From NCBI GenBank assembly GCA_040390295.1, contig JAZJYR010000024.1:14195-78194 (forward strand): 64,000 nucleotides of DNA, given 5' to 3'. Origin of the DNA: Pseudomonadota bacterium (GTDB lineage: Bacteria; Pseudomonadota; Gammaproteobacteria; Burkholderiales; Burkholderiaceae_C). Under the pieces are notes generated by a model, which saw nothing but the letters and a program-made list of their open reading frames with translations, made no database searches and was not told the DNA's origin. Each line of letters begins with the position of its first letter. Position 1 is the first letter of the stretch. Below, piece by piece: positions 6,624-50,580 of the stretch. Position numbers and translations under genes: made by a program.

Positions 6624-6646
6624 CTCAAAAAATACCTTGGTCACCC

Positions 6647-16058: not shown

Positions 16059-16255
16059 GCCGCAGTGTCTTTGGTCGCAATCGGCGGGATGCCTGGAACC
16101 CTGTGCAGCCGCGACAATCCAGCGGCACTCCGTGCCACGTCAACAGTCCTCGCAGGCCCGCTGCAGCGATGTGGGTCAGGCGCCGGCCGGCGTCGCTGGC
16201 GGCTGCTCGTGTGGCGACGAGAACAACGCAGCCGATTGACCAGTCGGAGGGACAT
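16055..16255 (-). CDS. possible 66-aa Arg-rich ORF exactly filling the gap between the exported protein and the first cphA-like gene
   Basis: Its ATG overlaps the upstream stop (TGATG) and its TGA overlaps the downstream ATG (ATGA). The composition (14 Arg) is also what a spurious ORF in GC-rich DNA would look like. Confidence 0.25.
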   Translation of the reverse strand: MSLRLVNRLRCSRRHTSSRQRRRPAPDPHRCSGPARTVDVARSAAGLSRLHRVPGIPPIATKDTAA

Positions 16256-16863
16256 CAGCGGTTAAGGCGGGCCAGTTCCCGGCGCAAGGCGGCCTCGTCA
16301 TCTCGCAGTCGAAGCAGAGAAGCGCTCTGGGCTGCTCCGCCGCTGCGCTGGGCAGCCTCAAGAGCTGCCTGCGTGCTGGCCAGCTCGGACCGCAGGATGG
16401 TTTGCGCGTCCTGGTCGCGCGCGCTCTGCTCACTCGTCGGTACCCGCATGCCTGTGGCGTCGGGCGAGCGGGCAGGGGCCGCAATAGCCGGGGCAATCCG
16501 GGCTTGGACGACGGGGGCGACTTTTTGGGCGGTGGGCGTTGCAACAGATCCGGCCAGTGGCCGGTCCCCCGCAGCCATGGTCGCAGAAACAGCGGCAGGC
16601 ACGGCAGCCGCTGGCACCGGATCGGCGGACTCCAGCTCCGGCCCACCTGCCGCCTGGGTGATACGCCCGGGCATCGCGCGCGAACACCCTTTAAGAAGTG
16701 CCTGAGCCTTATCCATCTGGTTGGTGAACAAATTGCGGGGGCACTGGTAGAGCTCACCGTCCGGCGCGGCATCAGCCAGCCCTGCAGTCGAGAGCACCCA
16801 GATACACATTGCAAGGCCCACAAACCCACATCGGGCAAATCTTAGGGGTTGTTTTTGCTCCAT
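16255..16863 (-). CDS. exported protein, DUF4124-like N-terminus and Ala/Pro-rich linker with C-terminal coiled coil
   Basis: Signal peptide MEQKQPLRFARCGFVGLAMCIWVLSTAGLADA, then ELYQCPRNLFTN...GC, then a helical ARDQDAQTILRSELASTQAALEAAQ tail. The ORF is open up to 16893, and the MEQKQ start is preferred. Confidence 0.5.
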   Translation of the reverse strand: MEQKQPLRFARCGFVGLAMCIWVLSTAGLADAAPDGELYQCPRNLFTNQMDKAQALLKGCSRAMPGRITQAAGGPELESADPVPAAAVPAAVSATMAAGDRPLAGSVATPTAQKVAPVVQARIAPAIAAPARSPDATGMRVPTSEQSARDQDAQTILRSELASTQAALEAAQRSGGAAQSASLLRLRDDEAALRRELARLNR

Positions 16864-17001
16864 AATGCATTGTATTCTTTTTACCGATTTCAATGTTTTT
16901 GTGGTGTTTGTATCGATTTTTGAACCGAACTCAAGCTTGATCGGGCAGTCCAGTTTGCAGGCTTACCGCCTGAGCCGCCCCCATTTCTCCACGACCACCT
17001 C

Positions 17002-18796: not shown

Positions 18797-19546
18797 ATGA
18801 TCAACGTTTCGGAAGCCCCGGGCCTGGAAAGTCCGACAAGGGTTCTGCTGGTTGAGGACGACGGGGAAATTCGCCACCTGCTTTGGCGCTATCTTGAGAC
18901 GAATGGCATCAAGATGTCGGTTGCAGCCGATGCCGGGGCGGCCCGCCGTTTGATGACACGCCAGTTCTTCGACCTCGTCATCCTCGACTTGTCACTTCCC
19001 GACGAGGATGGCCTCGGCATTTGCAAGAGCATGCGCGATGCTGGCGATAGCACCCCGCTCGTGATGCTCACAGCGCGCAGCGACCTTGCGGCCCGCGTCA
19101 CAGGCCTGGAAATGGGCGCGGACGATTACGTCACCAAGCCCTTTGAGCCAAGCGAACTCCTGGCGCGCATTCATGCCCAGGTGAGGGGACGACTTTATAA
19201 GAACATGATTCGGGGCGATGCGCATGACCCTCTTACGGTCACGTTCGGTATCTGGAGGCTGAGCCTCGACAGGCCCATGCTTTGCCGCGAAGGCCATCCT
19301 GTCGATATCACGCCAACCGAATACGCCCTGCTCAAAGCACTGGCGACACACTGCAATACACCTCTTGGGCGCGACAAATTGATCAGACTTACGCACAGTT
19401 TTGGGGCCACGCTCAATTGGCGCAGCGTTGACGTTCAGATCATGCGCCTGCGCAGGCTAATTGAAAGCGATCCGGCGTGTCCGCAGCTGATTCAGACGGT
19501 CTGGGGTGTGGGCTATGTCTTTGCGCCTGGGGAGTCCGGTGCCTGA
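18797..19546 (+). CDS. OmpR-family response regulator (receiver plus winged-helix)
   Basis: VLLVEDD...ILDLSLPDEDG...YVTKPF, and the C-terminal LTPTEYALLKAL...IQTVWGVGYVF. Confidence 0.9.
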   Translation: MINVSEAPGLESPTRVLLVEDDGEIRHLLWRYLETNGIKMSVAADAGAARRLMTRQFFDLVILDLSLPDEDGLGICKSMRDAGDSTPLVMLTARSDLAARVTGLEMGADDYVTKPFEPSELLARIHAQVRGRLYKNMIRGDAHDPLTVTFGIWRLSLDRPMLCREGHPVDITPTEYALLKALATHCNTPLGRDKLIRLTHSFGATLNWRSVDVQIMRLRRLIESDPACPQLIQTVWGVGYVFAPGESGA

Positions 19547-20918
19547 ACAAAAAAATTCTTTGGGTTCTTTTCTGACGTTCCAGTCACTGCAGCGTCTGCG
19601 ATCGCTTGCGGTTTTTAACACCATGCTGATCGTGTGTCTGGTGATCTCAATGTCAATGGGCATCGTCCTCACAGGGTTTTACCATTTCGTCCAGAAACCC
19701 CGGACTGAAGTATTGACAGACTTCTTTTCGGTGCAGATCTCTACTATTGAGCTGGCTATCTCCATATTGCCGCCAGCAGAGCGCAGCGGCTACCTGCAGC
19801 GACTTGAGACGCTCAGTGACGGAAAAATCAGGCTGTTTGAGCAGGGACACCAGGAAACGGCATCAACAGAACCGTACCTGGTACAGGAGTTTCTGAAAAA
19901 TTTGCGCCAAAAGTCGCCCCGACAAAAGATTAAGTTTATGACCAATCCCCACCCTCAATTGTGGGTGGAAATCAAGTCCCCAGGAGAAGCGCCCACCGTG
20001 TTAACCATGTTTCTGGCGGACGATCTTCGGGTTCCCGCAGGCCTGATCATCGCCAACGTTCTAGTCGCTCTGGCACTGGCTTTTGCAGGCAGCTTATTAC
20101 TGCTCAGGCACACCCGCAAAGAGTTGGGTCCGCTCGCGAAAGCGATTGACAGCTTTGGCGATGGAGCCCCATTTTCGACAGGCTTGCTCGCGGAAAGTAC
20201 CGGAGCTCACGGCATAAGTGAGGAGTTCCTCACAAAATTCAGCGACATGTCGAAACGCCTGGCGCAGGCAAACGTGGAGCGCCAGTTGCTGCTGGCCCAT
20301 CTGTCGCACGACCTGCGCTCCATACTGACGCGTCTGCGGCTAGCCATGGTGATGCTGGTCAACAATCCGAAGGCCATGCAGAAGCTGACGGCACACATCC
20401 ACGAGATGAATCGGCTCATTGGGCAGATACTGGATTTTGGACAGCCCGAAGAGCCTAAAGACGGGATGGAAATACACCTGAGTGAAGTGGTGAACACAGT
20501 TATCGCTGACTTCGAACTGCAAGGCGCGACGATTCATTACCTGGCGGCCCCAACGCCAGCGAGCGTGCTGCGACCACTGGCGGTGCGCCGGCTGCTAGGC
20601 AACCTTATCGACAACGCCTTGCGGCATGCTGGACCCACAGTGGAGTTACGCACATACTTTACAGACGGGTTCGTTCGCGTGCAGGTTCTGGACCGCGGCC
20701 CCGGGGTGAGGCCAGAAGAGCTGGTTCAGTTGACGCAACCCTACTTTCGCACCCCGGATGCACGGACACGTTGCCGAGGCAGCGGCCTTGGCCTGGCCAT
20801 CGCCGAGCGGATTGCGATCTCCCACGGCGGCTTTTTGCGGGTAGGACTGAGGAAAGGCGGCGGAATGTGCATAGAAGCCGGATTTCCCGCAAACGATGAC
20901 GCAAGCGCGGGCGCCTAG
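19506..20918 (+). CDS. EnvZ-like sensor histidine kinase
   Basis: Two TM segments, H-box LAHLSHDLRSILTRL, N-box LIDNALRHA, and G-boxes DRGPGV and GSGLGLAIAERI. It overlaps the regulator gene. Confidence 0.85.
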   Translation: MWAMSLRLGSPVPEQKNSLGSFLTFQSLQRLRSLAVFNTMLIVCLVISMSMGIVLTGFYHFVQKPRTEVLTDFFSVQISTIELAISILPPAERSGYLQRLETLSDGKIRLFEQGHQETASTEPYLVQEFLKNLRQKSPRQKIKFMTNPHPQLWVEIKSPGEAPTVLTMFLADDLRVPAGLIIANVLVALALAFAGSLLLLRHTRKELGPLAKAIDSFGDGAPFSTGLLAESTGAHGISEEFLTKFSDMSKRLAQANVERQLLLAHLSHDLRSILTRLRLAMVMLVNNPKAMQKLTAHIHEMNRLIGQILDFGQPEEPKDGMEIHLSEVVNTVIADFELQGATIHYLAAPTPASVLRPLAVRRLLGNLIDNALRHAGPTVELRTYFTDGFVRVQVLDRGPGVRPEELVQLTQPYFRTPDARTRCRGSGLGLAIAERIAISHGGFLRVGLRKGGGMCIEAGFPANDDASAGA

Positions 20919-20986
20919 AGACGCGGCCCTTTGCACCCCAGTGTCATTTTTGAAATATCTTTCCATTGCAAAAAAACCACAAAAAT

Positions 20987-21006
20987 TTTGCAAATAATCT
21001 TTGCAA
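20987..21006 (+). promoter_or_regulatory. direct repeat TTTGCAA-N6-TTTGCAA in the AT-rich region upstream of the first pilin gene
   Basis: TTTGCAAATAATCTTTGCAA. Further TTGCAA/TGCAA copies lie at 20966-20971 and ~21043. Confidence 0.35.
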
Positions 21007-21089
21007 TCAATACACTAGAAGCGTATTCAATACTTTACATGAATGCAATGTTTATATCGATTAAACTATTTTACGAACGGAGAAGTTAA

Positions 21090-21920
21090 ATGTTTCAAAG
21101 AATGAAAGCTGGAACCATGGGTCGAGGTAGAAGTCGGCAGGGCGGTTTCACCCTGGTCGAAATGTCCGTAGCGCTGGCGGCGGCAGGCTTGCTGTTCGCG
21201 GCCGTAATGACCGGTCAGGAGCTTATCGACCAGACAAAAGCCACCAAGCTGCTGAACGACGTCAAGTCGGTCGAAATGCAGATCCAGCAGTACGCGCAGC
21301 TCAAGGGTCGCATGCCCGGTGACTGCAACGCCGACGGCATCATTGACTTTGCGGCTGACGCCACCAGTCGTTTGGACACTGACAACACTACTCGTGCGCT
21401 GAAGTACGGATACGCCACCACAGTTCCAACTCCGGCGGGAACTGCGGCTACGGCAGCGACATTCGATGAGGGTTGTGTCCTCCAGGATTCCACTAACAAT
21501 ACCACCTCCACCACGCTCGCGGTGTCCACCACCGAAGCCAATACAGTGATCAATGACCTGAAGTTGGCGGGGGTGATCAGCGACAGCGTGCCCAACCGCA
21601 AGTTTGCCAAGCTGGTTCATGAAGACTTCATGTTTGTCGGCAAAATCACCGACAAGGGTGGTTCGTCAGCGGCAGATGCAAACTACAACGCCATCGTGAT
21701 CCACAACGTCCCGCAGTGGATGGCACGCCGCATGGCCACCGCCATCAATGGGCAGGACGCCGTTGCCAACCGCTCGCGCGTGCGCCTGTTAGAGCGTTCC
21801 GGTAGTGACGGAACCTATAACGGCCTTTGGAATACGACCGCTTCCGGTACCACTGGCAACAGCCGCGATGCCATGGTGACGGTGGTGTATTTCTTTGACC
21901 GCATTCCTGCAACCTCTTAA
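21090..21920 (+). CDS. type IV pilin-like protein (276 aa) with a 19-aa leader
   Basis: The prepilin motif is ...SRQGG/FTLVEMSVALAAAGLLFAA (Gly-1, Phe+1, Glu+5). The centre is Thr/Ser/Ala-rich and there are two Cys. A GGAG RBS lies 8 nt upstream. Confidence 0.8.
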   Translation: MFQRMKAGTMGRGRSRQGGFTLVEMSVALAAAGLLFAAVMTGQELIDQTKATKLLNDVKSVEMQIQQYAQLKGRMPGDCNADGIIDFAADATSRLDTDNTTRALKYGYATTVPTPAGTAATAATFDEGCVLQDSTNNTTSTTLAVSTTEANTVINDLKLAGVISDSVPNRKFAKLVHEDFMFVGKITDKGGSSAADANYNAIVIHNVPQWMARRMATAINGQDAVANRSRVRLLERSGSDGTYNGLWNTTASGTTGNSRDAMVTVVYFFDRIPATS

Positions 21921-21947
21921 CACTTAGCATTTGGCGAAAGCCAAAGT

Positions 21948-22018
21948 GAAGGTGGGCTCAGACCCACCTTCAACAAGTCAGCCCTGGCACACCTGTCACA
22001 GGCAGGGCTGACTTGTTG
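21948..22018 (+). terminator. two consecutive hairpins after the pilin gene
   Basis: GAAGGTGGG/CCCACCTTC (21948-21971), then a 16-bp stem CAACAAGTCAGCCCTG/CAGGGCTGACTTGTTG (21971-22018). Confidence 0.55.
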
Positions 22019-22059
22019 AACGGGACGCAAGCCCCTGAATACCTTGTCAGTCAAGTTTT

Positions 22060-23625
22060 TTGAAAAATCCGCCAATGAAAAAGCTGTTGGTCACCATGTC
22101 TCGCGCCGACACGCTATATGGCACCCACCCGGTGCGCTACGCAGTTGTGCGCGGCCGCGAGGTGTTGCAGATCGGCAGCGGCGCGGCGGACGAACTCGCC
22201 AACAAGGCGGGCGGCTCGATGCGCGTCAGCCTGGACTCACCTGAAAATCTGAGCGAGCGCTTGCGGGTGAGGGCCTTGGGGCGCCGGTTTGTGCCGGTGC
22301 TGGTGCAGCGCCACCTGACAGATAACGGAACCTTCACAGAACGTTTTCGCTCGCGCAGCCGCGTGGCCTGGCTGCGGCAAGGTGAGGCCGAGGTGGATGT
22401 GCATGCCATGCTGGAGGACGATGCCGAACTGGCCCAAAGCCTGATGCCGGGCTCCGCACGGCCGCTGACACATCTGATCACCGCAGACGCAGCGGTGGCC
22501 GACCTGATCCGTGCAGCCAGCACAGAGCCGGTACTGGTGCACTGGTGGCACATGGGCATGTTGCGCACCTTGGGCGTGCGCAATGGCAGCGTGGCCTGGC
22601 AGCGGGTACAACCGCTTGGGGACATGTCAGGGCATGCTGATGCAGACCTGTGGAAGACGCTGCTTGAAAGTGCGGCGGCGAATGCGCCAGCAGAATTCAC
22701 AGGTCCCAATTGCTCCGTTGTTCGCTTGGGTAACGGCCCTTGGGCCGCGTCGGGGGACTGGGCCAACAACGGGTCGCGCGAGCTGGTGCAGCGCATCTGC
22801 GACGTGTTCAAGGCCACAGACCCGACACAGGTGCTGCTGCAGCCAGACCTGTTTGGCTTGGCATTCGCAGACCGTCACCAAAACCTCATTACCAATGGCT
22901 ACCGCCAGCGCGTCGCGGCCTGGTACGCAGCGCCTGTGGCCGCGACCCTCGCCAGTCTTGCCGGCGCGGTGCTGCTAGGTCTGGGTATCTGGTGGCAGGC
23001 CCAGGCTGACCATCGCAGCGCGGCACTCGAGCTCAACCTGCAAACTCTGGCCACGCAAAGCAAGGCACTTGAGAACCAGCGCCCCCCCACAGGCGCGGTG
23101 GCTGCACTGCGCTCGGCAGCATGGCGCGAAACCGCGTTGGGCGCCAACCTTCGGGCGGACCACTTCCTCACCGAGCTGCTGGCCCAGGTGCCGGCAGATG
23201 CGCAAGTCACGCAGATCGCCATCCGCCGGGACGACCTTGGCAATGAGCGCCTGCGCCTGACTGACGGACGGCCCGCTCCCGGCACCCAATCTGCAAACGT
23301 GAAGGCGGCCCGCCAGCCCGTGACCCAGCAGGCGAAAGCCCCTTCCACTGATGGGTTGCGACCGGTGTCGGAGCCCGTGACGTTCAAACCAGGGGTGCCG
23401 GTAAGGCGCATGCCCCAGGCGGGTGAACCCACATTCACCGTGGACCTGAAGATCTATCTGGGAGGGGGTTACGCGGGTGGCAAGCTCAAGGCAGAGAAGA
23501 TGGCTGAGCAATTTTCGACGCTGGGGCGACTCTCGGACACCCGGCTGGTGTTCGAGGACCAGGGGCCGCTGGCTCCGGGCGCACTGATGCAAACGCGGCT
23601 GACCATCGCAGCCGGAGCCTTCTGA
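22060..23625 (+). CDS. bitopic pilus assembly protein, MshI-like (PilM/PilN-fusion-like) by position and topology
   Basis: About 300-aa cytoplasmic part, one TM (AAPVAATLASLAGAVLLGLGIWW), and a ~200-aa periplasmic part with a coiled coil. First gene of the assembly operon. No motif was confirmed by eye. Confidence 0.4.
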   Translation: MKNPPMKKLLVTMSRADTLYGTHPVRYAVVRGREVLQIGSGAADELANKAGGSMRVSLDSPENLSERLRVRALGRRFVPVLVQRHLTDNGTFTERFRSRSRVAWLRQGEAEVDVHAMLEDDAELAQSLMPGSARPLTHLITADAAVADLIRAASTEPVLVHWWHMGMLRTLGVRNGSVAWQRVQPLGDMSGHADADLWKTLLESAAANAPAEFTGPNCSVVRLGNGPWAASGDWANNGSRELVQRICDVFKATDPTQVLLQPDLFGLAFADRHQNLITNGYRQRVAAWYAAPVAATLASLAGAVLLGLGIWWQAQADHRSAALELNLQTLATQSKALENQRPPTGAVAALRSAAWRETALGANLRADHFLTELLAQVPADAQVTQIAIRRDDLGNERLRLTDGRPAPGTQSANVKAARQPVTQQAKAPSTDGLRPVSEPVTFKPGVPVRRMPQAGEPTFTVDLKIYLGGGYAGGKLKAEKMAEQFSTLGRLSDTRLVFEDQGPLAPGALMQTRLTIAAGAF

Positions 23626-23627
23626 TC

Positions 23628-25256
23628 ATGACCCGCGATGCCCAAACGGTGCAAGTTCGTCCGAACGGAAACGCTTTGCTCGCCCAACTGGAAAAAGCGG
23701 GCGTGCTCACGCCGCAACAGGTCAGCTACACGCAGCGAATCACTCGCTCTCTGGGCCAGCAGACGACCCAGATACTGCGACTGCTGCGCATGGTGTCGGA
23801 CACGGACATTGCCAAAGCGCTGGCTGTTGTGAACGGGCTGTCCAGCTGGCGACCCGATGCCACGAAAGTGGACTCGCAGGCGCTGGCACAGTTACCTTTC
23901 AGTTTTGCGCGGCAGCACAATATGCTGCCCGTGTGCAACATAAATGGCGTGCTTTACATCGCCACAGACGAGCCGGGTGACCTTGAGGCTCAACAACGCC
24001 TGCGCCGCCATGTCCCGGGCGAAGTGCGCTGGCTTGTTGCACCTCGCGCCGCACTGGCTTCGACCATAGAGATGGTCTACAGGGCCGCCAGCCACCCAAG
24101 CGCAGACGAACTGGAGCGCGAACTGGAACGGGTGGGCGGCGATCTGGATGGCGGCCGCCTGGTAAGGCTTGCACTTGCCGATGCGGTCGAGCGCGGTGCC
24201 AGCGACGTGCACTTCACGCCTTCAGGCTTCGCGTTGCTGGTTTCATTTCGCATCGACGGCGTGCTGCAGTTGCACCATGTGCTCCCCTCGGACCTGCATA
24301 TGCGCGTGGCGTCTGCCATCAAGGTGGAGGCTGGCATGGACATAGGTGAGTCAAGGCGCCCACAGGACGGGAGCTACACGCTTGCGGTGGCTGGCCAGCC
24401 ATTTGACCTGCGGGTCTCGACGATGCCAACCACCCATGGTGAGAATCTGGTGGTTCGGATTTTATCCATGCGGGGTGATGTGCTGCCGCTGGACCAATGT
24501 GGATTTTGGCCCGAGCAGGTGACGCAGATAGAACAACTGATGCGCGCGCCGGATGGCCTGGTGCTGGTCACCGGCCCCACCGGATGCGGCAAGACCACCA
24601 CCCTTTACGCTGGCCTGCGCATGATCAATGCGTTGGAACGCAACATCATGACGGTGGAAGACCCGGTTGAATACCACGTGCCGCTCGTCCGCCAAGTGCG
24701 CCTGAACGACCGTGCAGGCATGAACTTTTCCACTGCCGTCAAGGGCTTTCTGCGGCAAGACCCTGACGTGATCCTGGTGGGTGAAGTGCGCGACGCGGAA
24801 ACCGCATCGATGGCGATTCGTGCCGCTCAAACCGGCCATCTGGTACCTGCGAGCCTGCATACCAACGACGCTGTGGGCGCCATCAGCAGGCTGCGCGATC
24901 TGGAGGTGCCGGACTACCTGCTGTCGGCCAGTTTACGAGGGGTAGTTGCGCAACGCTTGCTGCGCAAACTGTGCGCGGTATGCCGCCAGCCGACGGAGGG
25001 ATCGCACTTTAAAGCAGTTGGCTGCGGGAGTTGTAACCAAACGGGCTACCGCATGCGACTGGCCGTGGGCGAGGTGTTGCTGATTGACGACGAAGTTCGG
25101 TCCCTGATTGATCAAAAGGCGGGGGAGTCAGCCATCCGGCGCAATGTGGTGGGACGCGGATTCAAGCCCATGCGCGTCTGGGCGCAGCAACTCGTGGACC
25201 TAGGCGTAACCACCAGCGCCGAGCTGGACCGGGTATTTGGCGGGGTTCCGGCATGA
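23628..25256 (+). CDS. GspE/PilB/MshE-family type IV filament assembly ATPase
   Basis: Walker A GPTGCGKTT, Walker B DPDVILVGEVRD, His box GHLVPASLHTND, and a tetracysteine CAVC...CGSC. Confidence 0.9.
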   Translation: MTRDAQTVQVRPNGNALLAQLEKAGVLTPQQVSYTQRITRSLGQQTTQILRLLRMVSDTDIAKALAVVNGLSSWRPDATKVDSQALAQLPFSFARQHNMLPVCNINGVLYIATDEPGDLEAQQRLRRHVPGEVRWLVAPRAALASTIEMVYRAASHPSADELERELERVGGDLDGGRLVRLALADAVERGASDVHFTPSGFALLVSFRIDGVLQLHHVLPSDLHMRVASAIKVEAGMDIGESRRPQDGSYTLAVAGQPFDLRVSTMPTTHGENLVVRILSMRGDVLPLDQCGFWPEQVTQIEQLMRAPDGLVLVTGPTGCGKTTTLYAGLRMINALERNIMTVEDPVEYHVPLVRQVRLNDRAGMNFSTAVKGFLRQDPDVILVGEVRDAETASMAIRAAQTGHLVPASLHTNDAVGAISRLRDLEVPDYLLSASLRGVVAQRLLRKLCAVCRQPTEGSHFKAVGCGSCNQTGYRMRLAVGEVLLIDDEVRSLIDQKAGESAIRRNVVGRGFKPMRVWAQQLVDLGVTTSAELDRVFGGVPA

Positions 25257-26464
25257 AGCTGTTCTGGTACCGGGCCATGACGTCAGAAGGCACTTTGGTG
25301 CGTGGCTCAGGCGAGCACGCCAGCGAGATGGATCTAATAGATTCGCTGGTCGCAGAGGGACTACAGCCGTACAGCGTCTGGTCGCTCCCGAGCTGGCTGA
25401 CGGTGCTGTGGTCGCGCCCCTTGAACATGGGGGCCGTAGCGGAGTTCTGCCAGCTGATCGGCCAGCATGTGCGCGCCGGTGCTGACCTTCGCCTAGCGCT
25501 GACCGAGGCAGTCAAGGGTGCCTCGACCACCCGGCTACGAATGCTCTGCGCGCGCCTGAAACGCTCGCTGGAGCGCGGTGACACGCTGGCTCAAGCCATG
25601 GAGGCGACCCGCGCGTTTCCGATGATGCTGCGCCACCTGTTAACTGTGGGCGAAGAGACAGGTCAACTCGAAAACATCCTGGGGAACGCAGCATCGCAGT
25701 ACGAGCAGGCGAGGGTACTGCGTGCGGCTATTCTTCGCGCAACTATTTACCCGGCCATTGTGCTGGTTGTGCTGCTTCTGAGCTGCGCATTCTGGATGTT
25801 GTTCGTCATTCCAAAAATGACGGCAATGTTCGACTCCTTACGCGTGACGCTGCCCCCGGCCACGCTGAAGGTGATTGCGGCAACCGAATGGCTGAGGGCG
25901 TACGGCGCATGGTTGCCTTTGGTACTGTTACCTCTCGCACTTGCCGTGCCGCTACTATGGCGTCATCCGTTTTTTGCCCCTGCGATCCATGCGGTGGTGT
26001 GGTGGATGCCCGGCGTCAAGGGTCTGGAACGCTCACGGGTTTATTACGCTTTTTTCAGCAATCTGGGAACCATGCAGTCGGCCGGCATGACCCTCACACG
26101 CAGTCTGGCAGTGCTGCTGCAGCAGCCTGTGAACCAGCACTTCGGCAGCCGCCTCACGCGCATGAGTGCCAGTACCCGCCGCGGGCTGGCACTATCCGAC
26201 GGTCTGGCACAAAGTGGGGTATTTGAGAGATTTGCCTTGAGCATGATCCGCCTTGGCGAGACCACGGGCACGCTTGACAAGCAAAGTCTGCTCTTGAGTG
26301 AGCACTATTCAGTGCGCCTCAAACAACAAATCGAAACCGGCTCGCGGCTGTTCGAACCCCTGGTGTTGCTTGTACTGGGTGTCTTCCTGCTGCTCATAGG
26401 CGCGACCATGCTGGGCCCGGTTTACGAACTGGCGTCGCGGGCAGCCACGGGGCTCAAGCCATGA
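25253..26464 (+). CDS. GspF/PilC/MshG-family inner-membrane platform protein
   Basis: Two repeated T2SSF-type halves (LIGQHVRAGADLRLAL... and FFSNLGTMQSAGMTLTRSL...), three TM segments, and an ATGA overlap with the ATPase gene. Confidence 0.85.
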   Translation: MKLFWYRAMTSEGTLVRGSGEHASEMDLIDSLVAEGLQPYSVWSLPSWLTVLWSRPLNMGAVAEFCQLIGQHVRAGADLRLALTEAVKGASTTRLRMLCARLKRSLERGDTLAQAMEATRAFPMMLRHLLTVGEETGQLENILGNAASQYEQARVLRAAILRATIYPAIVLVVLLLSCAFWMLFVIPKMTAMFDSLRVTLPPATLKVIAATEWLRAYGAWLPLVLLPLALAVPLLWRHPFFAPAIHAVVWWMPGVKGLERSRVYYAFFSNLGTMQSAGMTLTRSLAVLLQQPVNQHFGSRLTRMSASTRRGLALSDGLAQSGVFERFALSMIRLGETTGTLDKQSLLLSEHYSVRLKQQIETGSRLFEPLVLLVLGVFLLLIGATMLGPVYELASRAATGLKP

Positions 26465-28014
26465 ACACACAGACGTGCACACGTGAGCGCGGCTTCCTGA
26501 TGATAGAACTGGCGATCGGGCTGGTGTTGGCGGGTGCCCTGGTGGCCTTGTTATTACCGCTGATTACCATGCAGCGTGATCAGGACGCCGACCGCAAGGA
26601 TGCACTGGCGATGCAGCAGGCACGCGAAGCCCTGTTGGGCCAGGCAGTAGCAGGGGGCGGTCTCCCCGCTCCTGTGAAGTTCGCAGAAAGCCTTATTGAT
26701 GGCAGCACTTACGCAAGTAGCCATCTGACGCTGGACAGCCTGCTGACAGCACTGGCACCTGGGTGGGCTGGCGCCCTGCCCGGGCAGGCCTTGGGAGTGC
26801 CTGGCATTTCGTCACTGCAAACGGCTTACTGGTATGACGTACAGCCAGCCTTGCGAGCAGATGCTGCCACAGCGTTTTCACCCAAAGTGCAGCTTGGCGG
26901 CAGCGACTGGGAGTTCTATTCCATCATCGACCAGTTTGATCCAGACGTAAATACCGCGATGTCCACCGGTGGCTACAAAAGCCAGCTGTGCCGCAACCTT
27001 AACTCGTTGCAGGCCATCGAGCAAGCCATCAGGGTAGACAGCGGAACGAATTACCTGCGTGACTACATGCACGTTACCCTGCCTCGCGTATGGGGCGCGG
27101 GGTTCGAAAGTCAGTTCACCTGGAACAGCTCGCTGGGGTATGCAGAAGTCTCTCTCCCTGCAGGCGCTACGTCCTTGACCAACTCGGTCTTTGAGAACTC
27201 CGCCGCTGCTGCTTTCGTGGTGTCCCGGCGTCAGCCGCCCGCACTGCGCCGTCTTGATCGTCAAAACGCGGTGTATATGCAGCAAGGCCTGACCGGCCTG
27301 GATCTGGCCTTGAGCAACAGGGGAACTGATGCCTATCCAGCCACTGCGATGGCGGGAGACCGGGGCTTTCGGGTGTATGAAAACCCGGGCACATCGGCAG
27401 TTGACAACCCCACCGCAGACACTTCCGACTACGCGGGTCTGGTGCAGTCTGTGTCGCTGGGCGAGTTTGCCCAGTCGCTGCGCAAGGCCGGTATATGTAC
27501 GACGGCTGCAGCAGCATGCAAGGCAAACCAGTTGTTCGTTCGGCTGAGTAACAGCGTTCTGTCTGCACCACCTTCCGGTAGCGCCGTGGGCCTGCCAATG
27601 CGTTGGTCACTGGTTGACTCCACGAACGCCGTCTACCAGACCGGGGACGTAGTGGCAGGTGCCTCAACAGACGGCGTTTGCATGGATGCATTCGGCATCG
27701 ACACAGCGAACTCTGCTCCATTGCGCTACTTGAGGCTGGCCTTCATCAGTCCGGCGGGCACGGTCGGGTACCCAAGCGGCACCACGTACTACAGAGGCGG
27801 CCTCCTGGTCAGTCCAAACAGCACCCTCACCACCGCTGATGCAGGCGTCACAGCCTGGCGCCCACTGTCAGCTTTGTCGGCAGCTGACGCCGGCAAGACC
27901 GTGACAGTCTCATGCACTGGCACGCACACGGTTACCGCAGCGCTACCGGCGGGCGAACTCTCTACAGCAGCGGACCGGGTCTTGCCCACCTGCACGGTCA
28001 CCCAACTTCCCTGA
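26461..28014 (+). CDS. large (517 aa) pilin-like protein with prepilin N-terminus, candidate minor pilin or tip adhesin
   Basis: MNTQTCTRERG/FLMIELAIGLVLAGALVALLL (Gly-1, Phe+1, Glu+5). The rest has no motif I recognise. Confidence 0.6.
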   Translation: MNTQTCTRERGFLMIELAIGLVLAGALVALLLPLITMQRDQDADRKDALAMQQAREALLGQAVAGGGLPAPVKFAESLIDGSTYASSHLTLDSLLTALAPGWAGALPGQALGVPGISSLQTAYWYDVQPALRADAATAFSPKVQLGGSDWEFYSIIDQFDPDVNTAMSTGGYKSQLCRNLNSLQAIEQAIRVDSGTNYLRDYMHVTLPRVWGAGFESQFTWNSSLGYAEVSLPAGATSLTNSVFENSAAAAFVVSRRQPPALRRLDRQNAVYMQQGLTGLDLALSNRGTDAYPATAMAGDRGFRVYENPGTSAVDNPTADTSDYAGLVQSVSLGEFAQSLRKAGICTTAAAACKANQLFVRLSNSVLSAPPSGSAVGLPMRWSLVDSTNAVYQTGDVVAGASTDGVCMDAFGIDTANSAPLRYLRLAFISPAGTVGYPSGTTYYRGGLLVSPNSTLTTADAGVTAWRPLSALSAADAGKTVTVSCTGTHTVTAALPAGELSTAADRVLPTCTVTQLP

Positions 28015-28026
28015 GAACCAATTACC

Positions 28027-28461
28027 ATGACACTGTCATTTCACGCCCGATCGATCGCGCTGCTGGGACTCTCCGCAGCGTTGCTGGGAGTTGGTCTGTA
28101 CATGGCAAACACGGCCCGCGAAGCACTGACGCGCATCGATGCCCAGGAAAAAAAGCTAGCATTGGCCAACAAGGAGCTTGGACAAAACCGTGCAAATGCC
28201 GACGCATATAGCTTGCTTATCGAGCGTATCGGCTGGCGCCAGGGACAGGATTTGCGTCATGAGCTGATTAACACGTCGGCCACCATTGCGGACAATGAGA
28301 TCGATCGGCTCAACGAGATTCTCAAAGCGAATCACGTTGGCAAGGGACATTTTTTTCTGCGCAGCTTGAGCATTGAGGCGGTTCGCGCAGGGCCTCAGGG
28401 CAAGCCCGCCGTGAAGGTGGCGATGCAGGGCGACAACATCCTGGTACTGGATCGCCCATGA
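28027..28461 (+). CDS. small bitopic assembly protein, PilO/MshJ-like by position
   Basis: N-terminal TM (IALLGLSAALLGVGLYM), a coiled coil, then a small alpha/beta part. Confidence 0.4.
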   Translation: MTLSFHARSIALLGLSAALLGVGLYMANTAREALTRIDAQEKKLALANKELGQNRANADAYSLLIERIGWRQGQDLRHELINTSATIADNEIDRLNEILKANHVGKGHFFLRSLSIEAVRAGPQGKPAVKVAMQGDNILVLDRP

Positions 28462-28886
28462 AGCACTTTCTGCCCTTCCTTCTGATTCCGTTCCTGGCGG
28501 CAGCTGGCTGGGGACTGGCCTCATATAGTCCGGAGCGTGAAGAAGCGTCCTTTCCACAAATTGCGGAAATTGAAGAACCGCCGTTGCTTGGGCAGCCACC
28601 AGCAAGGCCGCAAACCGATGGACCGGTACGGGTGCGCATGACTGCACTGCTGCCACCAGCCACAGTGGCAGCCAACCCTGAGAATCCCAGCCTGCGCCAG
28701 CCTGAACCCCGCGTATCAGCAATTCTGGTTGACGGCTCGCGCCGGGTTGCCCAAATTGACGGAATTGCGCTCGCTGTTGGCGAAAGTCGAGGTGTTTACA
28801 GGGTCGCCGTCATTGAATCAGAGCGGGTGCTTTTCGTGCAGACCGTACTAGGCACCAAGCGCTGGATTCAAGTGAATCCACAATAA
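28458..28886 (+). CDS. small periplasmic assembly protein, MshK/PilP-like
   Basis: Signal/TM segment, a Pro-rich linker, then ILVDGSRRVAQIDGIALAVGESRGVYRVAVIESERVLF. This pattern is typical of the small secretin-associated proteins. Confidence 0.45.
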   Translation: MKHFLPFLLIPFLAAAGWGLASYSPEREEASFPQIAEIEEPPLLGQPPARPQTDGPVRVRMTALLPPATVAANPENPSLRQPEPRVSAILVDGSRRVAQIDGIALAVGESRGVYRVAVIESERVLFVQTVLGTKRWIQVNPQ

Positions 28887-28888
28887 AA

Positions 28889-30364
28889 ATGGGCTATTGC
28901 GTGAAAAACTCCCGATATATCCCCCAAAAAATTGCATACGTATTCCCGTTGTGGATCGCAACGGTCTTCCTGGGTGCGTGCACACCCCTGGTCAAGACGC
29001 CGCCGGGATCTGAAGCCATTCCACCCACAGCCTACGCCCAGGTCAACCGGAAACTGAAGGAGGCGCAGGCGGCGCTGCCTGCAGCACCAGTCGCATTGCC
29101 GCCCGAGCAACGACTGCCCTCCTTTGACGGTAACGCCGACAAGGGCACGGGCCAGCCTGCGCTTTACTCCTTCAAGGCGCGCGAATTGCCGTTGCGTGAT
29201 GCCTTGGGGCTGCTGGCTCGCGCCCACGGACTGAACATCGTCGCCGACCCCGACATCACCGGCACGGTCACTGTGGACTTTCAGGATGTGCCCTTGTCGA
29301 AGGCTTTCGACATTTTGCTGTCCAGCATGGGTTATTCATGGGATGAGGAACAAGGCATCATTCGCGTCCGCTCGTCTATCACGCGTACTTTCGAAGTCGA
29401 CTACATCCGGGCCGCCCGCTCAACAGGCCCAGCGGGTGCCGCTGGCGCAGCCGGTGGCGGGAGCAGTACGTTCTGGGCCGAATTCGAAGCCGAGGTGCGA
29501 TCATTGCTATCGCCCAAGGGACGCCTGACAGTCAACAGGCTCACTGGAACGGTGATGCTGACCGATCTGCCTTCCAAGGTTGCAGGCGCCGCACGTTACA
29601 TCGAACTGATGCGCGAGGGGATGTACCGCCAGATCGATATTGAAGTGCGTATCGTCGAGGTAACCCTGAGCGACAATTTTGCACTGGGACTGGACTGGAG
29701 CCGGTTCAAAATCAATCCATTGCGCGGTTCCCTCGCGATCAACACAATCATCAACGCACCTCAGGCGACAAGCCGGTTACCCGGCACCCTTGCAGCCAGC
29801 TTTAGTGGCGACCGCTACGGCGCACTGATAGAAGCCATGCGCGAACAGGGCGATGTGAGGGTGGTATCCCAACCACGGATCCGGATCCTGAACAACCAGA
29901 CGGCTTCAGTGAAGGTTGGTACTGACGAAACTTTTTTCAGCCGTTCGACCAACCGCATCATTCAGGGCGGCGGCAACGTGCTGGACACCGTCAACGAACA
30001 GGGACTTAGTGTCAACTTTGGCGTCTCGCTGACAGTGACGCCGCAGATTTCAGCCGACGGCTGGGCCATGATCAACGTCGCCCCGACTGTCACCCGACTG
30101 GCGGGCATCACCACATCACCTTCAGGTCAGAGCAGCGCGCCAATTCTGGACGTCAGCCAGACCAGCACCATGATCCGGGTGCGGACCGGCGAACTGGTGA
30201 TGCTGGGCGGCCTGATTCAGGAGCAGACCAGCGACACGAACCGCCGTGTGCCTGGGCTGGGCGATCTGCCGGTTGTGGGCAACGCCTTCAAGAGTACCTA
30301 CCAGGCGGGCCTGCGCAAGGAACTGGTGATCTTTCTGGTCCCCACAGTTCAGCCAGGCCAGTAA
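28889..30364 (+). CDS. mshL: lipoprotein secretin (MshL/PilQ/GspD family)
   Basis: Lipobox FLGAC. Secretin core VVSQPRIRILNNQTASVKVG...PGLGDLPVVGNAFKS...ELVIFLVPTV. Confidence 0.85.
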   Translation: MGYCVKNSRYIPQKIAYVFPLWIATVFLGACTPLVKTPPGSEAIPPTAYAQVNRKLKEAQAALPAAPVALPPEQRLPSFDGNADKGTGQPALYSFKARELPLRDALGLLARAHGLNIVADPDITGTVTVDFQDVPLSKAFDILLSSMGYSWDEEQGIIRVRSSITRTFEVDYIRAARSTGPAGAAGAAGGGSSTFWAEFEAEVRSLLSPKGRLTVNRLTGTVMLTDLPSKVAGAARYIELMREGMYRQIDIEVRIVEVTLSDNFALGLDWSRFKINPLRGSLAINTIINAPQATSRLPGTLAASFSGDRYGALIEAMREQGDVRVVSQPRIRILNNQTASVKVGTDETFFSRSTNRIIQGGGNVLDTVNEQGLSVNFGVSLTVTPQISADGWAMINVAPTVTRLAGITTSPSGQSSAPILDVSQTSTMIRVRTGELVMLGGLIQEQTSDTNRRVPGLGDLPVVGNAFKSTYQAGLRKELVIFLVPTVQPGQ

Positions 30365-30382
30365 ACCTTAGATTACCCACAC

Positions 30383-31213
30383 ATGCAAACCACAATGGCT
30401 CCGCGCTACCAGGCACTGGGATTTAACAACGTCCCGTTCTCGATCACGCCGGATACCTCTTTGTTTTTCGCGGGGAAACAGCATGTCATTGCATATAACC
30501 GTCTCCACCATGCCTGCATGAATGGCACCATGTCCGTCCTCTCAGGAGAGATCGGCCTTGGCAAGACGCTGATCCTGCGCTGCGTCATGCGCAGCTTGCC
30601 CGCGCATGTGCGGGTTGCCTACCTGATCAACCCTCTGATGGGGCTAGCCGACATGCTGCGGGAGATCTACTCGGAATTCGGCGGCCCGCCTGCCGAAAAG
30701 GAAAATCTGGTCACGCTGAACAGAGCACTGATCAAGCTGATTTTGGAGGGTGCCGCTCGCGGCGAACGCTTCGTCGTCATTGTCGACGAAGCCCAACGCC
30801 TTACAAGCGAGGCGCTGGAGTCGTTGCGTATGCTGTCCAATCTCGAAACCGAACGGGTCAAACTCATAAGCCTGGTGCTAGTCGGTCAGACTGAGCTCGA
30901 GACAACGCTCAAGCTGCGCGCCATGCGCCCGCTGCGAGAACGCATTGGCGTATGGCTGGTGCTGGCGCCCCTGAGCAGGGACGAATGCGCCGCTTACGTG
31001 CGACACCGCTTGGCCTGTACACACAGCAGCGGGGACTTCAGCTTCAGTCCGGCAGCGCTGTGGTGGCTGCAATACAAAACCCGCGGGGTCCCACGGCGTA
31101 TTAACCTGGCATGCGAACGGGCTGTGTTGTTAGCACACACACACCGCACGCGCCGTGTGAGCCTGGACCTCATCAGGCAGGCCTGCAATGAATTTTCAAA
31201 GTTCTGGCAATGA
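30383..31213 (+). CDS. ExeA/MshM-like AAA ATPase
   Basis: Walker A GEIGLGKTL, Walker B VVIVDEAQ, and SLRMLSNLE...LVGQTEL as in ExeA/MshM. Confidence 0.8.
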   Translation: MQTTMAPRYQALGFNNVPFSITPDTSLFFAGKQHVIAYNRLHHACMNGTMSVLSGEIGLGKTLILRCVMRSLPAHVRVAYLINPLMGLADMLREIYSEFGGPPAEKENLVTLNRALIKLILEGAARGERFVVIVDEAQRLTSEALESLRMLSNLETERVKLISLVLVGQTELETTLKLRAMRPLRERIGVWLVLAPLSRDECAAYVRHRLACTHSSGDFSFSPAALWWLQYKTRGVPRRINLACERAVLLAHTHRTRRVSLDLIRQACNEFSKFWQ

Positions 31214-32649
31214 GCGCAATCGAACAAGCGCTGCGTCAGATTGATCTGCAACGCGAGAGCAAGCCCGCTGCGGCCGGGATTCATCCACGCCAGGGAAATC
31301 ACATGCTCATTGACTCTCCGGGCGTGGCGGCAGCCCCACCGGGCAAGCGATGGGGAATCTGGCTTCTATTGCTGGCGATATTGGGCGCGTTGCTGGCTTT
31401 CGGTCTACGGCTGGATCTTATTCAAATCGTGATGAAGCCTGCTGCGAGACCCGCCGCTACCACAGGCAAGCTGATCACGCCAACAGCGACAGTTTTCCCA
31501 CCCTTTCAGCCCGACACCTCGAACACGGCGCAGGCCCAAGCCAGCGCTGTACTACCAAAGGCGGACTGGATGGCTCAGGCGTCTCGCGCTTGGGACGGCG
31601 GGGCATGGGACTATGCGGCGCGTCTCTGGTTAGAGGGCCTGCGCCGCACAGCGCCGTCAACACTGGCGTTGCAGCTTGCCGACCTTCAGACTCTTGAGCA
31701 GACGCAGCGGATGTACCAGACATGGTCACGTGACTGGCCGTTGGTGATCCTGGCACAAAATTCTCCGGCAGGACCGCGCTGGATGGTGCTGGTGCTGCCG
31801 GAAGCGGCCGATGTAGGTGCGGTGCAGCAGCGCCTCGCCCGGGTGCTTGGCCAGCCGGTGGCGTGGGCCAGCGTGATGCAGTGGGTGGCGACGGCCGAAC
31901 TGGGGCCCTCGATGACGGTAACGCCACCAGCTACGGCACTCATTACACAGCCCTCACCCACAGCGCCCACGACACAACCAACGGCCGCCGCCCCCGACGT
32001 TCCTGCGCAGAAAGATGCCAAACCAGATAGGACTCGGCAGGCGTCGAGCCCATCGCCTCTACCAGCAGCGTCCAAGATCAGCGCCACAGTGCCGCGAGGA
32101 GAATCGGTCGAGCCTCCGCAGGTGAACAGGTCCAATGGCGCAGCCGTGACTGACCAGGCACGCGCGGCTGTGGCGTCCAAAGCCATTGATGTGAATTTCT
32201 CTGCTGCAGAGCTACTACTGGCAAGGGGAGAGTTCGATAAGGCGTTCACCGCTGTCGAGCAGTTAGAGGGCTACATGGGCTCGAACTGGCGTACGCGCTA
32301 CCTTGCAGGCGTTGCTCTGTCAGGCCTGGGACGCTGGAAAGAAGCAGTGCCAGCATTGACCAGCGCAAGTCAGAAGAACCCCGATCACGCAAGAGCGTCG
32401 CTGTACCTTGCGGTGGCGTTGCAGGAGTCGGGCGACCATACGGGCGCCATCGACACCCTTGTCAAAGCGACAGCAAGCCACCCCGAAATGCCGGAACTCT
32501 GGCTTAACCAGGGCCATTCACTACAGGCACTTGGCCGGACCGAAGAGGCCACCCAGGCCTACAGGCGCTTCCTCAATCTCAGCGCCAATCGCGGCGATCT
32601 GAACCAGCAGCGCAGTTGGGTCGAAAAGCGCCTGCAGAAGGCAGACTGA
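31210..32649 (+). CDS. MshN-like bitopic protein with C-terminal TPR repeats
   Basis: One TM (WGIWLLLLAILGALLAFGL), a Pro/Thr/Ala-rich linker, and TPR-like helices at the C-terminus. It follows the ExeA-like ATPase, as in msh loci. Confidence 0.6.
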   Translation: MSAIEQALRQIDLQRESKPAAAGIHPRQGNHMLIDSPGVAAAPPGKRWGIWLLLLAILGALLAFGLRLDLIQIVMKPAARPAATTGKLITPTATVFPPFQPDTSNTAQAQASAVLPKADWMAQASRAWDGGAWDYAARLWLEGLRRTAPSTLALQLADLQTLEQTQRMYQTWSRDWPLVILAQNSPAGPRWMVLVLPEAADVGAVQQRLARVLGQPVAWASVMQWVATAELGPSMTVTPPATALITQPSPTAPTTQPTAAAPDVPAQKDAKPDRTRQASSPSPLPAASKISATVPRGESVEPPQVNRSNGAAVTDQARAAVASKAIDVNFSAAELLLARGEFDKAFTAVEQLEGYMGSNWRTRYLAGVALSGLGRWKEAVPALTSASQKNPDHARASLYLAVALQESGDHTGAIDTLVKATASHPEMPELWLNQGHSLQALGRTEEATQAYRRFLNLSANRGDLNQQRSWVEKRLQKAD

Positions 32650-33437
32650 TGTCAGCGCCCACCCGTTCCAGATCAAAAGGTCCTGGATACGCACAGCAGC
32701 GTTGCAGCCAAAACGGCTTCTCGTTGATCGAGATTGCCATGGCGCTTGCATTGATGGGCGTATTGGTCAGCATGACCCTGAAATCCCAGGAGTTGCTGGA
32801 ACAATACCGCGAAAATCAGTTTGTGGCTCAGGTGCAGACGCTGATAGCCAACGTCCGCGCCCACCGCAGTTCACTCGGCCGATGGCCGGGCGACTGCAAC
32901 CGGGACGGCTTGGTGGACAACACTTTCACGACTTTGACTACTGAACCCGGCATGGATCTGGAATATGTCGTGCCGCAATCGTTCACCGCAGCAGCCGGTT
33001 CAGCCGCGACCTATGCCGTGGGGAACGTATGCCCGCTGAGCACGTTACTGCCTTTTGAGAACGTCAACGTTCCGTTCAACGAACTCAAGCTCGCGGGCCT
33101 AGCCCCACTTGGCGAACCTAACCGCAAATCGGCCAACCACGGCTTGACCGGATTTGCCTACGTGGGCACATTTGAGACGACCGCTTCCTCCGCCACGATT
33201 GAGCAGAGGTTCAATGCAGTATTGCTCACTGACGTCCCCAAACAGGCGGCAAGACGGCTGGCCAACGCCATCGACGGGCACGACGGCACCGCCGCCAACA
33301 TGGGCAGGGTGCGCCGCGTCAACAGCGACCTGCATACCTTCGCAAAGCTATGGACCCCTGTCGACGAAAGCCAGACGGGTCGCATCAATGTGGTCGTTTT
33401 TTTTGACCGCATTCCTACGAGCATGGTTCTCCTGTAA
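32649..33437 (+). CDS. second type IV pilin-like protein, paralog of 21090-21920, with a 23-aa leader
   Basis: ...CSQNG/FSLIEIAMALALMGVLV. It shares GDCNxDG, NELKLAG, ARRxAxAIxGxD and the VVxFFDRIP end with the first pilin. The ATG overlaps the mshN-like stop (TGATG), and the ORF is open from 32616. Confidence 0.8.
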   Translation: MSAPTRSRSKGPGYAQQRCSQNGFSLIEIAMALALMGVLVSMTLKSQELLEQYRENQFVAQVQTLIANVRAHRSSLGRWPGDCNRDGLVDNTFTTLTTEPGMDLEYVVPQSFTAAAGSAATYAVGNVCPLSTLLPFENVNVPFNELKLAGLAPLGEPNRKSANHGLTGFAYVGTFETTASSATIEQRFNAVLLTDVPKQAARRLANAIDGHDGTAANMGRVRRVNSDLHTFAKLWTPVDESQTGRINVVVFFDRIPTSMVLL

Positions 33438-34971: not shown

Positions 34972-35039
34972 AGCAGAGTCTCCATTGAGTTTTCGAATAG
35001 CCGGCGACGGAGTGTTCCTGCTCGCGGGTCGGCAGGGCT

Positions 35040-50352: not shown

Positions 50353-50580
50353 ATGACGTTACTAATCTTGCCTCGAATAATTCGCCATCGCGATGCGCCT
50401 ACCTATCTAGGTATGGACCGCAACCGGTTTGATGATGAAGTTCGCCCTTTTCTCACCGAAATACCCGTGGGCGATCGAGGTGTTGGGTTTGACCGACTTG
50501 AACTGGATGCCTGGGTTGAGGGGTATATTGCTGAGCGTGGGCTTCCGGGGCGTAACCATAAAGGAGTGAATGAATGCAAA
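50353..50580 (+). CDS. AlpA/Xis-like HTH protein (C-terminus uncertain)
   Basis: ILPRIIRHRDAPTYLGMDRNRFDDEVRPFLTEIPVGDRGVGFDRLELDAWVEGY follows the AlpA/excisionase pattern. The frame stays open to 50793, overlapping the integrase gene. Confidence 0.5.

Follow-up and report, generated by a model that had tools for sequence, protein, structure and literature searches.

An apparently undescribed, MSH-like type IV filament locus of conserved gene order on an integrative tRNA-Arg island

Eleven intact open reading frames (ORFs), all on the + strand and spanning 12.3 kb from 21090 to 33437, form a candidate type IV filament locus in a 64,000-nucleotide stretch of the Pseudomonadota assembly GCA_040390295.1, which is placed in Burkholderiales (contig JAZJYR010000024.1, positions 14,195 to 78,194). 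This whole 64-kb stretch is called the window here, and coordinates are counted from its first letter. Judged by its sequence, the locus appears to be a rare, previously undescribed variant of the mannose-sensitive hemagglutinin (MSH) type of filament with a conserved architecture. On balance, its probable product is a type IV filament on the cell surface, and an adhesive pilus of an MSH-like unclassified subtype is the likeliest form. Literature searches found no description of this gene cluster. A sequence-only reading of the same DNA had called the subtype unplaceable, and neither a curated model nor a paper was found that puts the locus in a described subtype. The genes are as follows, with cleavage sites marked by a slash.

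21090..21920, + strand: pil1, a prepilin of 276 aa (N_methyl, 25.4 bits; G/FTLVE cleavage motif)
22075..23625, + strand: predicted PilM-PilN fusion of the MshI/GspL type in the inner membrane, a 521-aa ORF (recognized by AlphaFold2 and Foldseek; no Pfam match), hereafter the I-like protein
23628..25256, + strand: assembly ATPase of the GspE/PilB/MshE family, 542 aa (T2SSE, 383 bits; MshEN, 53 bits; CxxC...CxxC motif)
25253..26464, + strand: inner-membrane platform of the GspF/PilC/MshG family, 403 aa (two T2SSF matches, 137 bits)
26461..28014, + strand: 517-aa prepilin-type protein (RG/FLMIE class III signal; six conserved Cys; Glu+5 invariant among 18 homologs)
28027..28461, + strand: 144-aa bitopic protein (N-terminal transmembrane (TM) segment and coiled coil; conserved in all relatives)
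28458..28886, + strand: 142-aa protein (N-terminal hydrophobic segment, Pro-rich linker, short C-terminal beta domain; conserved in relatives)
28889..30364, + strand: lipoprotein secretin, 491 aa (Secretin, 126.6 bits; STN, 34 bits; LGAC lipobox with the Cys conserved in orthologs)
30383..31213, + strand: ExeA/MshM-like AAA ATPase, 276 aa (AAA_22, 81.6 bits; without a peptidoglycan-binding domain)
31210..32649, + strand: bitopic TPR protein, MshN-like, 479 aa (TPR_16, TPR_19 and TPR_2 above cutoff, C-terminal; TM segment at about 48-70 seen in the translation)
32649..33437, + strand: pil2, a second prepilin of 262 aa and a paralog of pil1 (N_methyl, 24.3 bits)

The eleven co-directional, tightly packed genes that the sequence-only reading had described are thus present, and its list of gene contents agrees with the Pfam and NCBIfam domains and with the predicted fold of the I-like protein. 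Stop and start codons overlap by 4 or 1 nt, or lie 2 nt apart, between the I-like protein and the ATPase, the ATPase and the platform (25253-25256), the platform and the 517-aa protein (26461-26464), the 144-aa and 142-aa proteins (28458-28461), the 142-aa protein and the secretin, the AAA ATPase and the TPR protein (31210-31213), and the TPR protein and pil2 (ATG at 32649). The sole real spacer in the operon is the 139 nt after pil1. On an identical metagenome contig, the called starts lie slightly farther downstream for the I-like protein (22075), the AAA ATPase (30395), and pil2 (32649). All eleven ORFs are full length relative to orthologs in at least 13 loci. Pfam gives family matches for seven of the proteins and none for the 521-aa, 517-aa, 144-aa, and 142-aa products. 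The generic type IV filament set is present, consisting of prepilins with class III signals, a T2SSE ATPase, a T2SSF platform, and a secretin.

By gene content, the closest type appears to be MSH, because the locus combines a secretin-MshM-MshN block with a fused MshI-type protein, is a single locus, and has no peptidase gene. The secretin-ExeA-TPR block, which had been proposed from the letters, is seen as Secretin/STN, AAA_22, and TPR matches in consecutive genes. The latter two lie in adjacent overlapping genes (30383-32649) directly after the secretin, which is the MshM/MshN position, and come from family-level Pfam models. As in MSH pili, the secretin is a short lipoprotein that scores best as MshL. 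The N-domain of the ATPase has V. cholerae MshE (5HTL) as its best match in the PDB, although the match is weak (24 bits vs 18 for PilB). MSH loci are single-locus systems, from which the prepilin peptidase is absent as a rule (Denise et al. 2019, PMC6668835). Neither a peptidase nor a retraction ATPase gene lies inside the present locus, and a tblastn search with the ATPase found no second T2SSE-family ATPase, PilT-like genes included, in the 64-kb window. A retraction ATPase is likewise not known to be encoded in MSH loci, V. cholerae MSHA being the example. The sequence-only reading had remarked on the lack of a peptidase and PilT in the window; the absence holds for the peptidase among the scanned ORFs and for PilT in the tblastn search, but it is no oddity, since it is usual for MSH loci.

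The locus differs from classical MSH loci by its gene order and pilin complement. The classical order in V. cholerae is mshHIJKLMNEGFBACDOPQ, i.e., I-J-K-L-M-N-E-G-F-B-A-C-D, whereas the order here is pilin-I-E-G-large pilin-J-K-L-M-N-pilin. With three prepilin-type genes only, there is no room for MshB, MshC, MshD, and MshO, and no counterparts of MshF, MshO, MshP, and MshQ were recognized. In addition, the pilins are of about 260 aa, and the residues of the cyclic di-GMP (c-di-GMP) motif of MshE are not conserved. Control of the ATPase by c-di-GMP was considered and not adopted, because motif II carries other residues where MshE 5HTL has RLG and Q. Aeromonas loci were rejected as MSH references, as they are type IVa pilus tapBC and pilMNOPQ clusters.

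The curated equivalog models all stay below their cutoffs. The secretin scores best with the MshL model TIGR02519 (203 bits, E 3.6e-60, vs a cutoff of 250), followed by PilQ (167 bits vs 284) and GspD (150 bits vs 351), and its nearest solved structure is PilQ. The ATPase reaches 433 bits with the GspE model (cutoff 630) and 427 bits with the PilB model (cutoff 676). The platform reaches 189 bits with GspF (cutoff 424), a prepilin 18 bits with GspG (cutoff 89), and the ExeA/MshM-like ATPase 182 bits with TIGR03015, which is below the cutoff. A type IVa pilus is therefore poorly matched, since PilB and PilQ stay below their cutoffs, PilM and PilN are fused, and a PilT-like gene is missing from the window. 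PLSDB contained no close relative of the subtype; the identity there was at most 43% for the ATPase and at most 26% for the secretin.

The same scores bear on a type II secretion system (T2SS)-like machine, in which a short periplasmic pseudopilus would push a dedicated cargo through the secretin; in relatives, this cargo might be tied to a giant adhesin encoded beside the locus. We regard this alternative as rather unlikely. The ATPase, with its zinc-type CxxC pairs, is GspE-like and marginally nearer to GspE than to PilB by model score. Among solved structures, EpsE (312 bits) and PilB (299 bits) match it about equally well, and PilT (117 bits) matches it far less. The GspF platform, the resemblance of the I-like protein to the cytoplasmic domain of GspL, the N0/STN secretin, an ExeA-like accessory ATPase as in Aeromonas, and the absence of a retraction ATPase are also shared with T2SSs. 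Furthermore, the N-termini of the prepilins have remote matches to GspG and GspH models, and homologs carry the label "type II secretion system protein" in source annotations. However, the GspE, GspF, GspD, and GspG models all fall far under their cutoffs, the locus has no GspH-I-J-K set, and the 142-aa protein lacks the PDZ domain of a GspC. The secretin is without the long N1-N3 region. The pilins, twice as large as GspG, are variable and occur in duplicate in relatives, and an O-oligosaccharyltransferase is encoded near them. The giant adhesin of the relatives has its own TpsB exporter. An exposed fiber fits better than a periplasmic pseudopilus, because the pilins are large, variable, and duplicated, a glycosylation ligase is adjacent, and pil2 is a hot spot of single-nucleotide polymorphisms (SNPs).

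The architecture is conserved in a small group of relatives. A scan of one genome from each of 185,579 species gave 13 loci, which is a lower bound because the scan was keyed on two conserved peptides. These loci are found in Hydrogenophaga and Limnohabitans genomes, two Comamonadaceae metagenome-assembled genomes (MAGs), and one MAG labelled Alphaproteobacteria. At 31-34% identity, they are also found in a Burkholderiales MAG, Quisquiliibacterium transsilvanicum, and the gammaproteobacterium Halorhodospira neutriphila. The closest relatives are Hydrogenophaga MAGs, whose ATPase is 84-85% and whose large pilin is 69-72% identical, which makes a Hydrogenophaga-like groundwater bacterium of the Comamonadaceae the probable source of the DNA. 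The order pilin(s), I-like protein, ATPase, platform, large pilin, 144-aa protein, 142-aa protein, secretin, AAA ATPase, TPR protein, pilin is the same in every locus found, from Hydrogenophaga to Halorhodospira. Quisquiliibacterium is an exception in that all its pilin copies are downstream. Since the order is conserved in every relative found, it is a fixed property of an old, rare type. The "rearranged order" of the sequence-only reading is therefore correct in being non-classical but not as a local rearrangement. Relatives with the same order were found, and a clean fit to a well-described subtype was not. At least five metagenome studies of groundwater and watersheds also contain the locus, which is 100% conserved in several independent ones.

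The most unusual component is the 517-aa protein, whose homologs of 47-73% identity come from Hydrogenophaga, Limnohabitans, and metagenome contigs. It had been proposed that one large pilin-like protein takes the place of the usual minor pilin set; the class III signal and a pilin alpha1 helix in this protein support the proposal. Its AlphaFold2 model (pLDDT 72, pTM 0.77) has a 54-residue alpha1 helix (12-65) followed by beta-rich domains. When the model was compared with the PDB by Foldseek, there was no match at E<0.01, and nothing resembled CofB, TcpB, GspK, or PilY1. A profile of the protein run against 1.84 billion representative proteins found only 16 clusters at E<1e-30. The other matches, about 275, cover only the first ~130 positions and belong to ordinary prepilins of 200-290 aa. 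Because these matches are limited to the prepilin N-terminus, the protein is taken to be a genuine prepilin with a rare head. It is probably a tip or initiator subunit, by analogy with the large minor pilins of type IVb pili (CofB, TcpB) and with modular pilins (S. sanguinis PilB/PilC). In these, as proposed here, one prepilin of about 500 aa, in which beta-rich domains are added to a pilin module, takes over from several small minor pilins. Homology to CofB and TcpB was dropped, as Foldseek gave no fold match, and the analogy was kept. In contrast to type IVb pili, there is no sequence or fold match, and the locus has neither a lipoprotein secretin set of the Bfp/Tcp type nor a PilN-type secretin.

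The other two prepilins resemble each other. pil1 and pil2 are 31% identical (E 2e-37) and have in common a GR.PGDC.DG motif and a C-terminal V.FFDRIP motif. Pilins of this type are about 260 aa when mature, with a variable center rich in Thr, Ser, and Ala. All three prepilins of the locus carry class III signals with an invariant Glu+5. In relatives, the gene at the pil1 position is present in one to three tandem copies. Between the window and a second strain, divergence is about 0.1% over 13 kb, except for 50 SNPs within 32322-33458, a region that covers the 3' end of the TPR gene and pil2. This cluster suggests recombination or diversifying selection on pil2.

The genes and signals on either side of pil1 are as follows.

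17002..18618, + strand: O-oligosaccharyltransferase of the PglL/TfpO type (PglL_A, 44.6 bits vs a cutoff of 25; Wzy_C, 78.7 bits; Wzy_C_2, 90.3 bits)
18797..19546, + strand: response regulator of the OmpR/PhoB family (Response_reg and Trans_reg_C)
19506..20918, + strand: sensor histidine kinase (HisKA and HATPase_c; start at 19515 on the identical contig)
20920..21089, + strand: upstream region of pil1, 170 nt, AT-rich, with three TTGCAA motifs at 20966, 20988, and 21001
21921..22059, + strand: spacer after pil1, predicted to fold into three stem-loops (-62.7 kcal/mol, z -5.46; none of 200 shuffles was equally stable)

pil1 is probably the major subunit. Its gene behaves like a major pilin gene, because an AT-rich region of its own lies upstream, a very stable structure comes after it, and relatives have it in one to three copies, and because it accounts for the sole locus-specific piece in a metatranscriptome. 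This piece is a 260-nt contig from a freshwater metatranscriptome, which is 100% identical to 21234-21493. A pilin gene followed by a structured spacer is an arrangement typical of a major pilin gene with machinery genes expressed at a lower level behind it. In two related loci (L013 and L016), direct repeats of TTGCAAG about 11 nt apart also precede the first pilin gene, and the TTGCAA repeats would fit the binding of a response regulator. The OmpR-type regulator and its kinase do not lie beside the locus in relatives, so the pair is lineage-specific and not a conserved part of the system. The sequence-only reading had placed this pair upstream correctly (18797-20918) but had overlooked the PglL-type gene. 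By sequence, the latter probably encodes a pilin glycosylation ligase, and orthologs lie upstream of the pilin genes in two Hydrogenophaga loci. As with the PglL, PilO (TfpO), and TfpM ligases of Neisseria, Pseudomonas, and Acinetobacter, a ligase with PglL_A and Wzy_C is found near pilin genes. It differs from them in reaching only 29 bits with the TfpM equivalog (cutoff 600) and in having a two-component pair between the ligase and pil1.

The remaining proteins can be arranged into an assembly machine. The I-like protein has the fused PilM-PilN architecture of MshI and GspL in its AlphaFold2 model, which was built with 22 homologs (pLDDT 75). In Foldseek, the N-terminal actin-like domain of the model resembles PilM (5eou, E 3.6e-9) as well as the GspL cytoplasmic domain (4pht_X and 1yf5, target-normalized TM-score 0.59-0.66). 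Behind this domain come a TM/coiled-coil helix (274-370) and, at the C-terminus, a beta-alpha-beta-beta domain. Sequence searches of the PDB with profiles of the I-like, 144-aa, and 142-aa families found nothing. The 144-aa protein may be PilO/GspM/MshJ-like, as its topology and position suggest. A weak profile match (probability 56%) links it to the TM/coiled-coil stretch of the I-like protein, in the way that PilO aligns with PilN. The 142-aa protein is, by position and topology, a PilP/GspC/MshK-like candidate.

Gene content, folds, conservation, and island borders are directly established, and every step of the function outlined here is inferred. The three prepilins would be cut at G/F..xE by a peptidase encoded elsewhere in the genome. 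The hexameric ATPase, docked on the actin-like domain of the PilM-PilN protein, and the GspF-type platform would then polymerize them. The 144-aa and 142-aa proteins would complete the alignment complex of the inner membrane and periplasm and connect it to the lipoprotein secretin. The MshM-like ATPase and the TPR protein may help the secretin to assemble or to cross peptidoglycan, the role proposed for ExeA/ExeB and MshM/MshN. pil1 would form the bulk of the fiber as its major subunit. The 517-aa prepilin would replace the minor pilin set, prime assembly, and cap the tip, as CofB and TcpB do in type IVb pili. The PglL-type ligase would O-glycosylate the pilins, and the OmpR-type pair may control the pil1 promoter. 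A glycosylated adhesive pilus is the most likely function.

The locus is carried on a mobile element, which is delimited by the following features.

693..739, strand not assigned: attL, the left island end, 47 nt that repeat the 3' half of tRNA-Arg without a mismatch (100% identical to 51786-51832)
50574..51698, + strand: tyrosine integrase adjoining the tRNA gene (Phage_integrase, 48.8 bits)
51786..51862, - strand: tRNA-Arg (ACG), the only tRNA in the window (ARAGORN); its 3' 47 nt (51786-51832) are attR

The filament locus lies inside an integrative island of about 51 kb, as shown by the 47/47 repeat, the integrase beside the tRNA gene, and the core genes beyond it. The tRNA island assumed by the sequence-only reading is thereby confirmed. 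To the right of the tRNA gene, core metabolic genes begin at 51993 and encode CoA-transferases, an acyl-CoA dehydrogenase, TctC receptors, and acyl-CoA synthetases. The GC content of the island is a mosaic of 0.49-0.64. Its cargo includes three rve-family transposases, an IS1595 transposase, a TIR protein, a BilD-like E1, and two-component genes. It resembles tRNA-integrated islands in having tRNA-Arg at one end, a repeat of its 3' half at the other, an integrase, insertion sequence (IS) elements, and defense-like genes. It differs from them in that no transfer genes were seen among the scanned island ORFs and in a partial third att copy. The latter, at 3576-3622, matches in 26 of its first 27 nt; two elements in tandem are the probable explanation, and a decayed older element is also suggested. 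The idea of a composite transposon was rejected, as the two flanking rve transposases are without a common long DNA repeat.

Such a location raises the question of a DNA-uptake or mating pilus that helps the island itself to transfer, comparable to the type IVb pili found in R64 or in integrative and conjugative elements of the PAPI-1 type. The integrase and att repeats around the locus would fit this idea. However, the relaxase, coupling-protein, and type IV secretion system families had no match among the scanned island ORFs, and no ComEA/ComEC-type gene lies near the locus. In relatives, the locus adjoins adhesin genes, and no integrase was seen in the flanks examined. A pilus of this kind is highly improbable.

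Several other island genes were noted. Beside the integrase, 49440-50294 (-) matches BilD, the E1 of the Bil ubiquitin-like anti-phage system (PADLOC, E 1.6e-109). The match spans profile positions 193-452 of 453, so that the N-terminus is absent or the start is mis-called. It has small neighbors at 49042-49443 (-) and 48364-48750 (-). The TIR-domain protein at 46608-47255 (+) matches the PADLOC candidate PDC-S66 (E 2.3e-31) and ThsB-like models (E 3.3e-17), and an MreB-like_C protein is encoded just upstream (45126-45740). In the left part of the island (4120-9396), signaling genes are densely clustered; their products are a receiver protein of the HTH_17/MerR type, a hybrid kinase with PAS, a dCache kinase, and a stand-alone receiver.

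In relatives, the filament locus has further partners. Wherever the flank is on the contig, Comamonadaceae relatives have a gene for a ShlB/POTRA_2 protein (TpsB) after pil2. This gene belongs to the same operon as the pilus, because the gap between pil2 and TpsB is 4-12 nt in the three loci with gene calls. A divergent upstream operon encodes a small secreted protein, a SapC-family protein, and a protein of 6,373-7,483 aa. It is seen in the relatives L003 (1-4474), L004, L006, L011, and L013-L017. The first 872 residues of the giant protein match NF012204, "leukotoxin LktA family filamentous adhesin", with 113 bits (cutoff 60). This piece is N-terminal, in agreement with where the LktA-family secretion domain lies, and the label "C-terminal" for it in the relatives was rejected. 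SapC is reported to adjoin giant adhesin-like proteins in Chlorobium chlorochromatii as well (preprint 10.64898/2026.03.19.712371). The window keeps only one gene of the adhesin operon; the genes for SapC, the giant adhesin, and TpsB are absent.

16255..16893, - strand: small secreted protein, 212 aa, a tblastn homolog of L003 x286, the first gene of the x286-SapC-adhesin operon of the relatives (no Pfam match)

An ORF at 16176-16838 (-) was rejected as the upstream neighbor because it is in the wrong frame. Where relatives have SapC and the adhesin, the window has two adjacent proteins of 605 and 667 aa with weak ATP-grasp matches (12248-16058, -). Where they have TpsB, it has two adjacent NTP_transf_8 (PF12281) genes without a defense-model match (33997-36125, -), after which an IS481 transposase follows (36494-37441).

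The losses could mean that the locus is a non-functional passenger, a captured fragment that lacks SapC, the adhesin, and TpsB and is decaying. The absence from the window of three partner genes that nearly all Comamonadaceae relatives possess, and the transposases on either side (9658-10590 and 36494-37441), would fit this reading. However, none of the eleven ORFs is broken or shortened, several metagenomes contain an identical locus, and a fragment of a pil1 transcript, possibly DNA-derived, was detected. Furthermore, the Quisquiliibacterium and Halorhodospira versions are without the adhesin module in their available flanks, which indicates that the core can stand alone. Decay is thus improbable.

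The island copy is probably a stripped version of the chromosomal Comamonadaceae locus with its giant two-partner-secretion adhesin. A wider proposal, which we consider less likely than not, is that these loci form a distinct unnamed filament family. In Comamonadaceae, the filament would be one half of a composite apparatus with the adhesin, and the island copy would be a stripped mobile module. The pilus, perhaps via the 517-aa head, and the adhesin of 6,400-7,500 aa might be assembled or displayed together.

Several points weigh against an adhesive pilus of the MSH-like subtype as the product of this locus. The filament is known here from its genes alone, and its type is unsettled, since none of the curated equivalog models reaches its cutoff. 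No A24 prepilin peptidase was found among the scanned window ORFs. The tip or initiator role of the 517-aa prepilin is an analogy, because its head fits no solved structure, and the roles of the 144-aa and 142-aa proteins come from topology and position, with no Pfam or PDB match. The metatranscriptome support is one contig of 260 nt, which may be DNA carry-over. Finally, TpsB and the adhesin, which are found in nearly all close relatives, are absent from the island copy. Should the pilus depend on these two, the function of the copy could be impaired.

Among the surface machines of prokaryotes, type IV filaments are the most versatile. In the type IV filament census, 101 of the 309 representative systems, about a third, were left "generic" (PMC6668835). 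The locus would be one such unclassified type with a fixed architecture, in which one 517-aa prepilin stands instead of four or five minor pilins. Its location on the island shows that the pilus core can move on its own. Limnohabitans, Quisquiliibacterium, and Halorhodospira are cultured carriers, which makes the type open to study. The coupling with TpsB and the giant adhesin, seen outside the window in relatives among the abundant freshwater Comamonadaceae, is the most interesting lead, as it may point to cooperation between a type IV filament and type Vb secretion.

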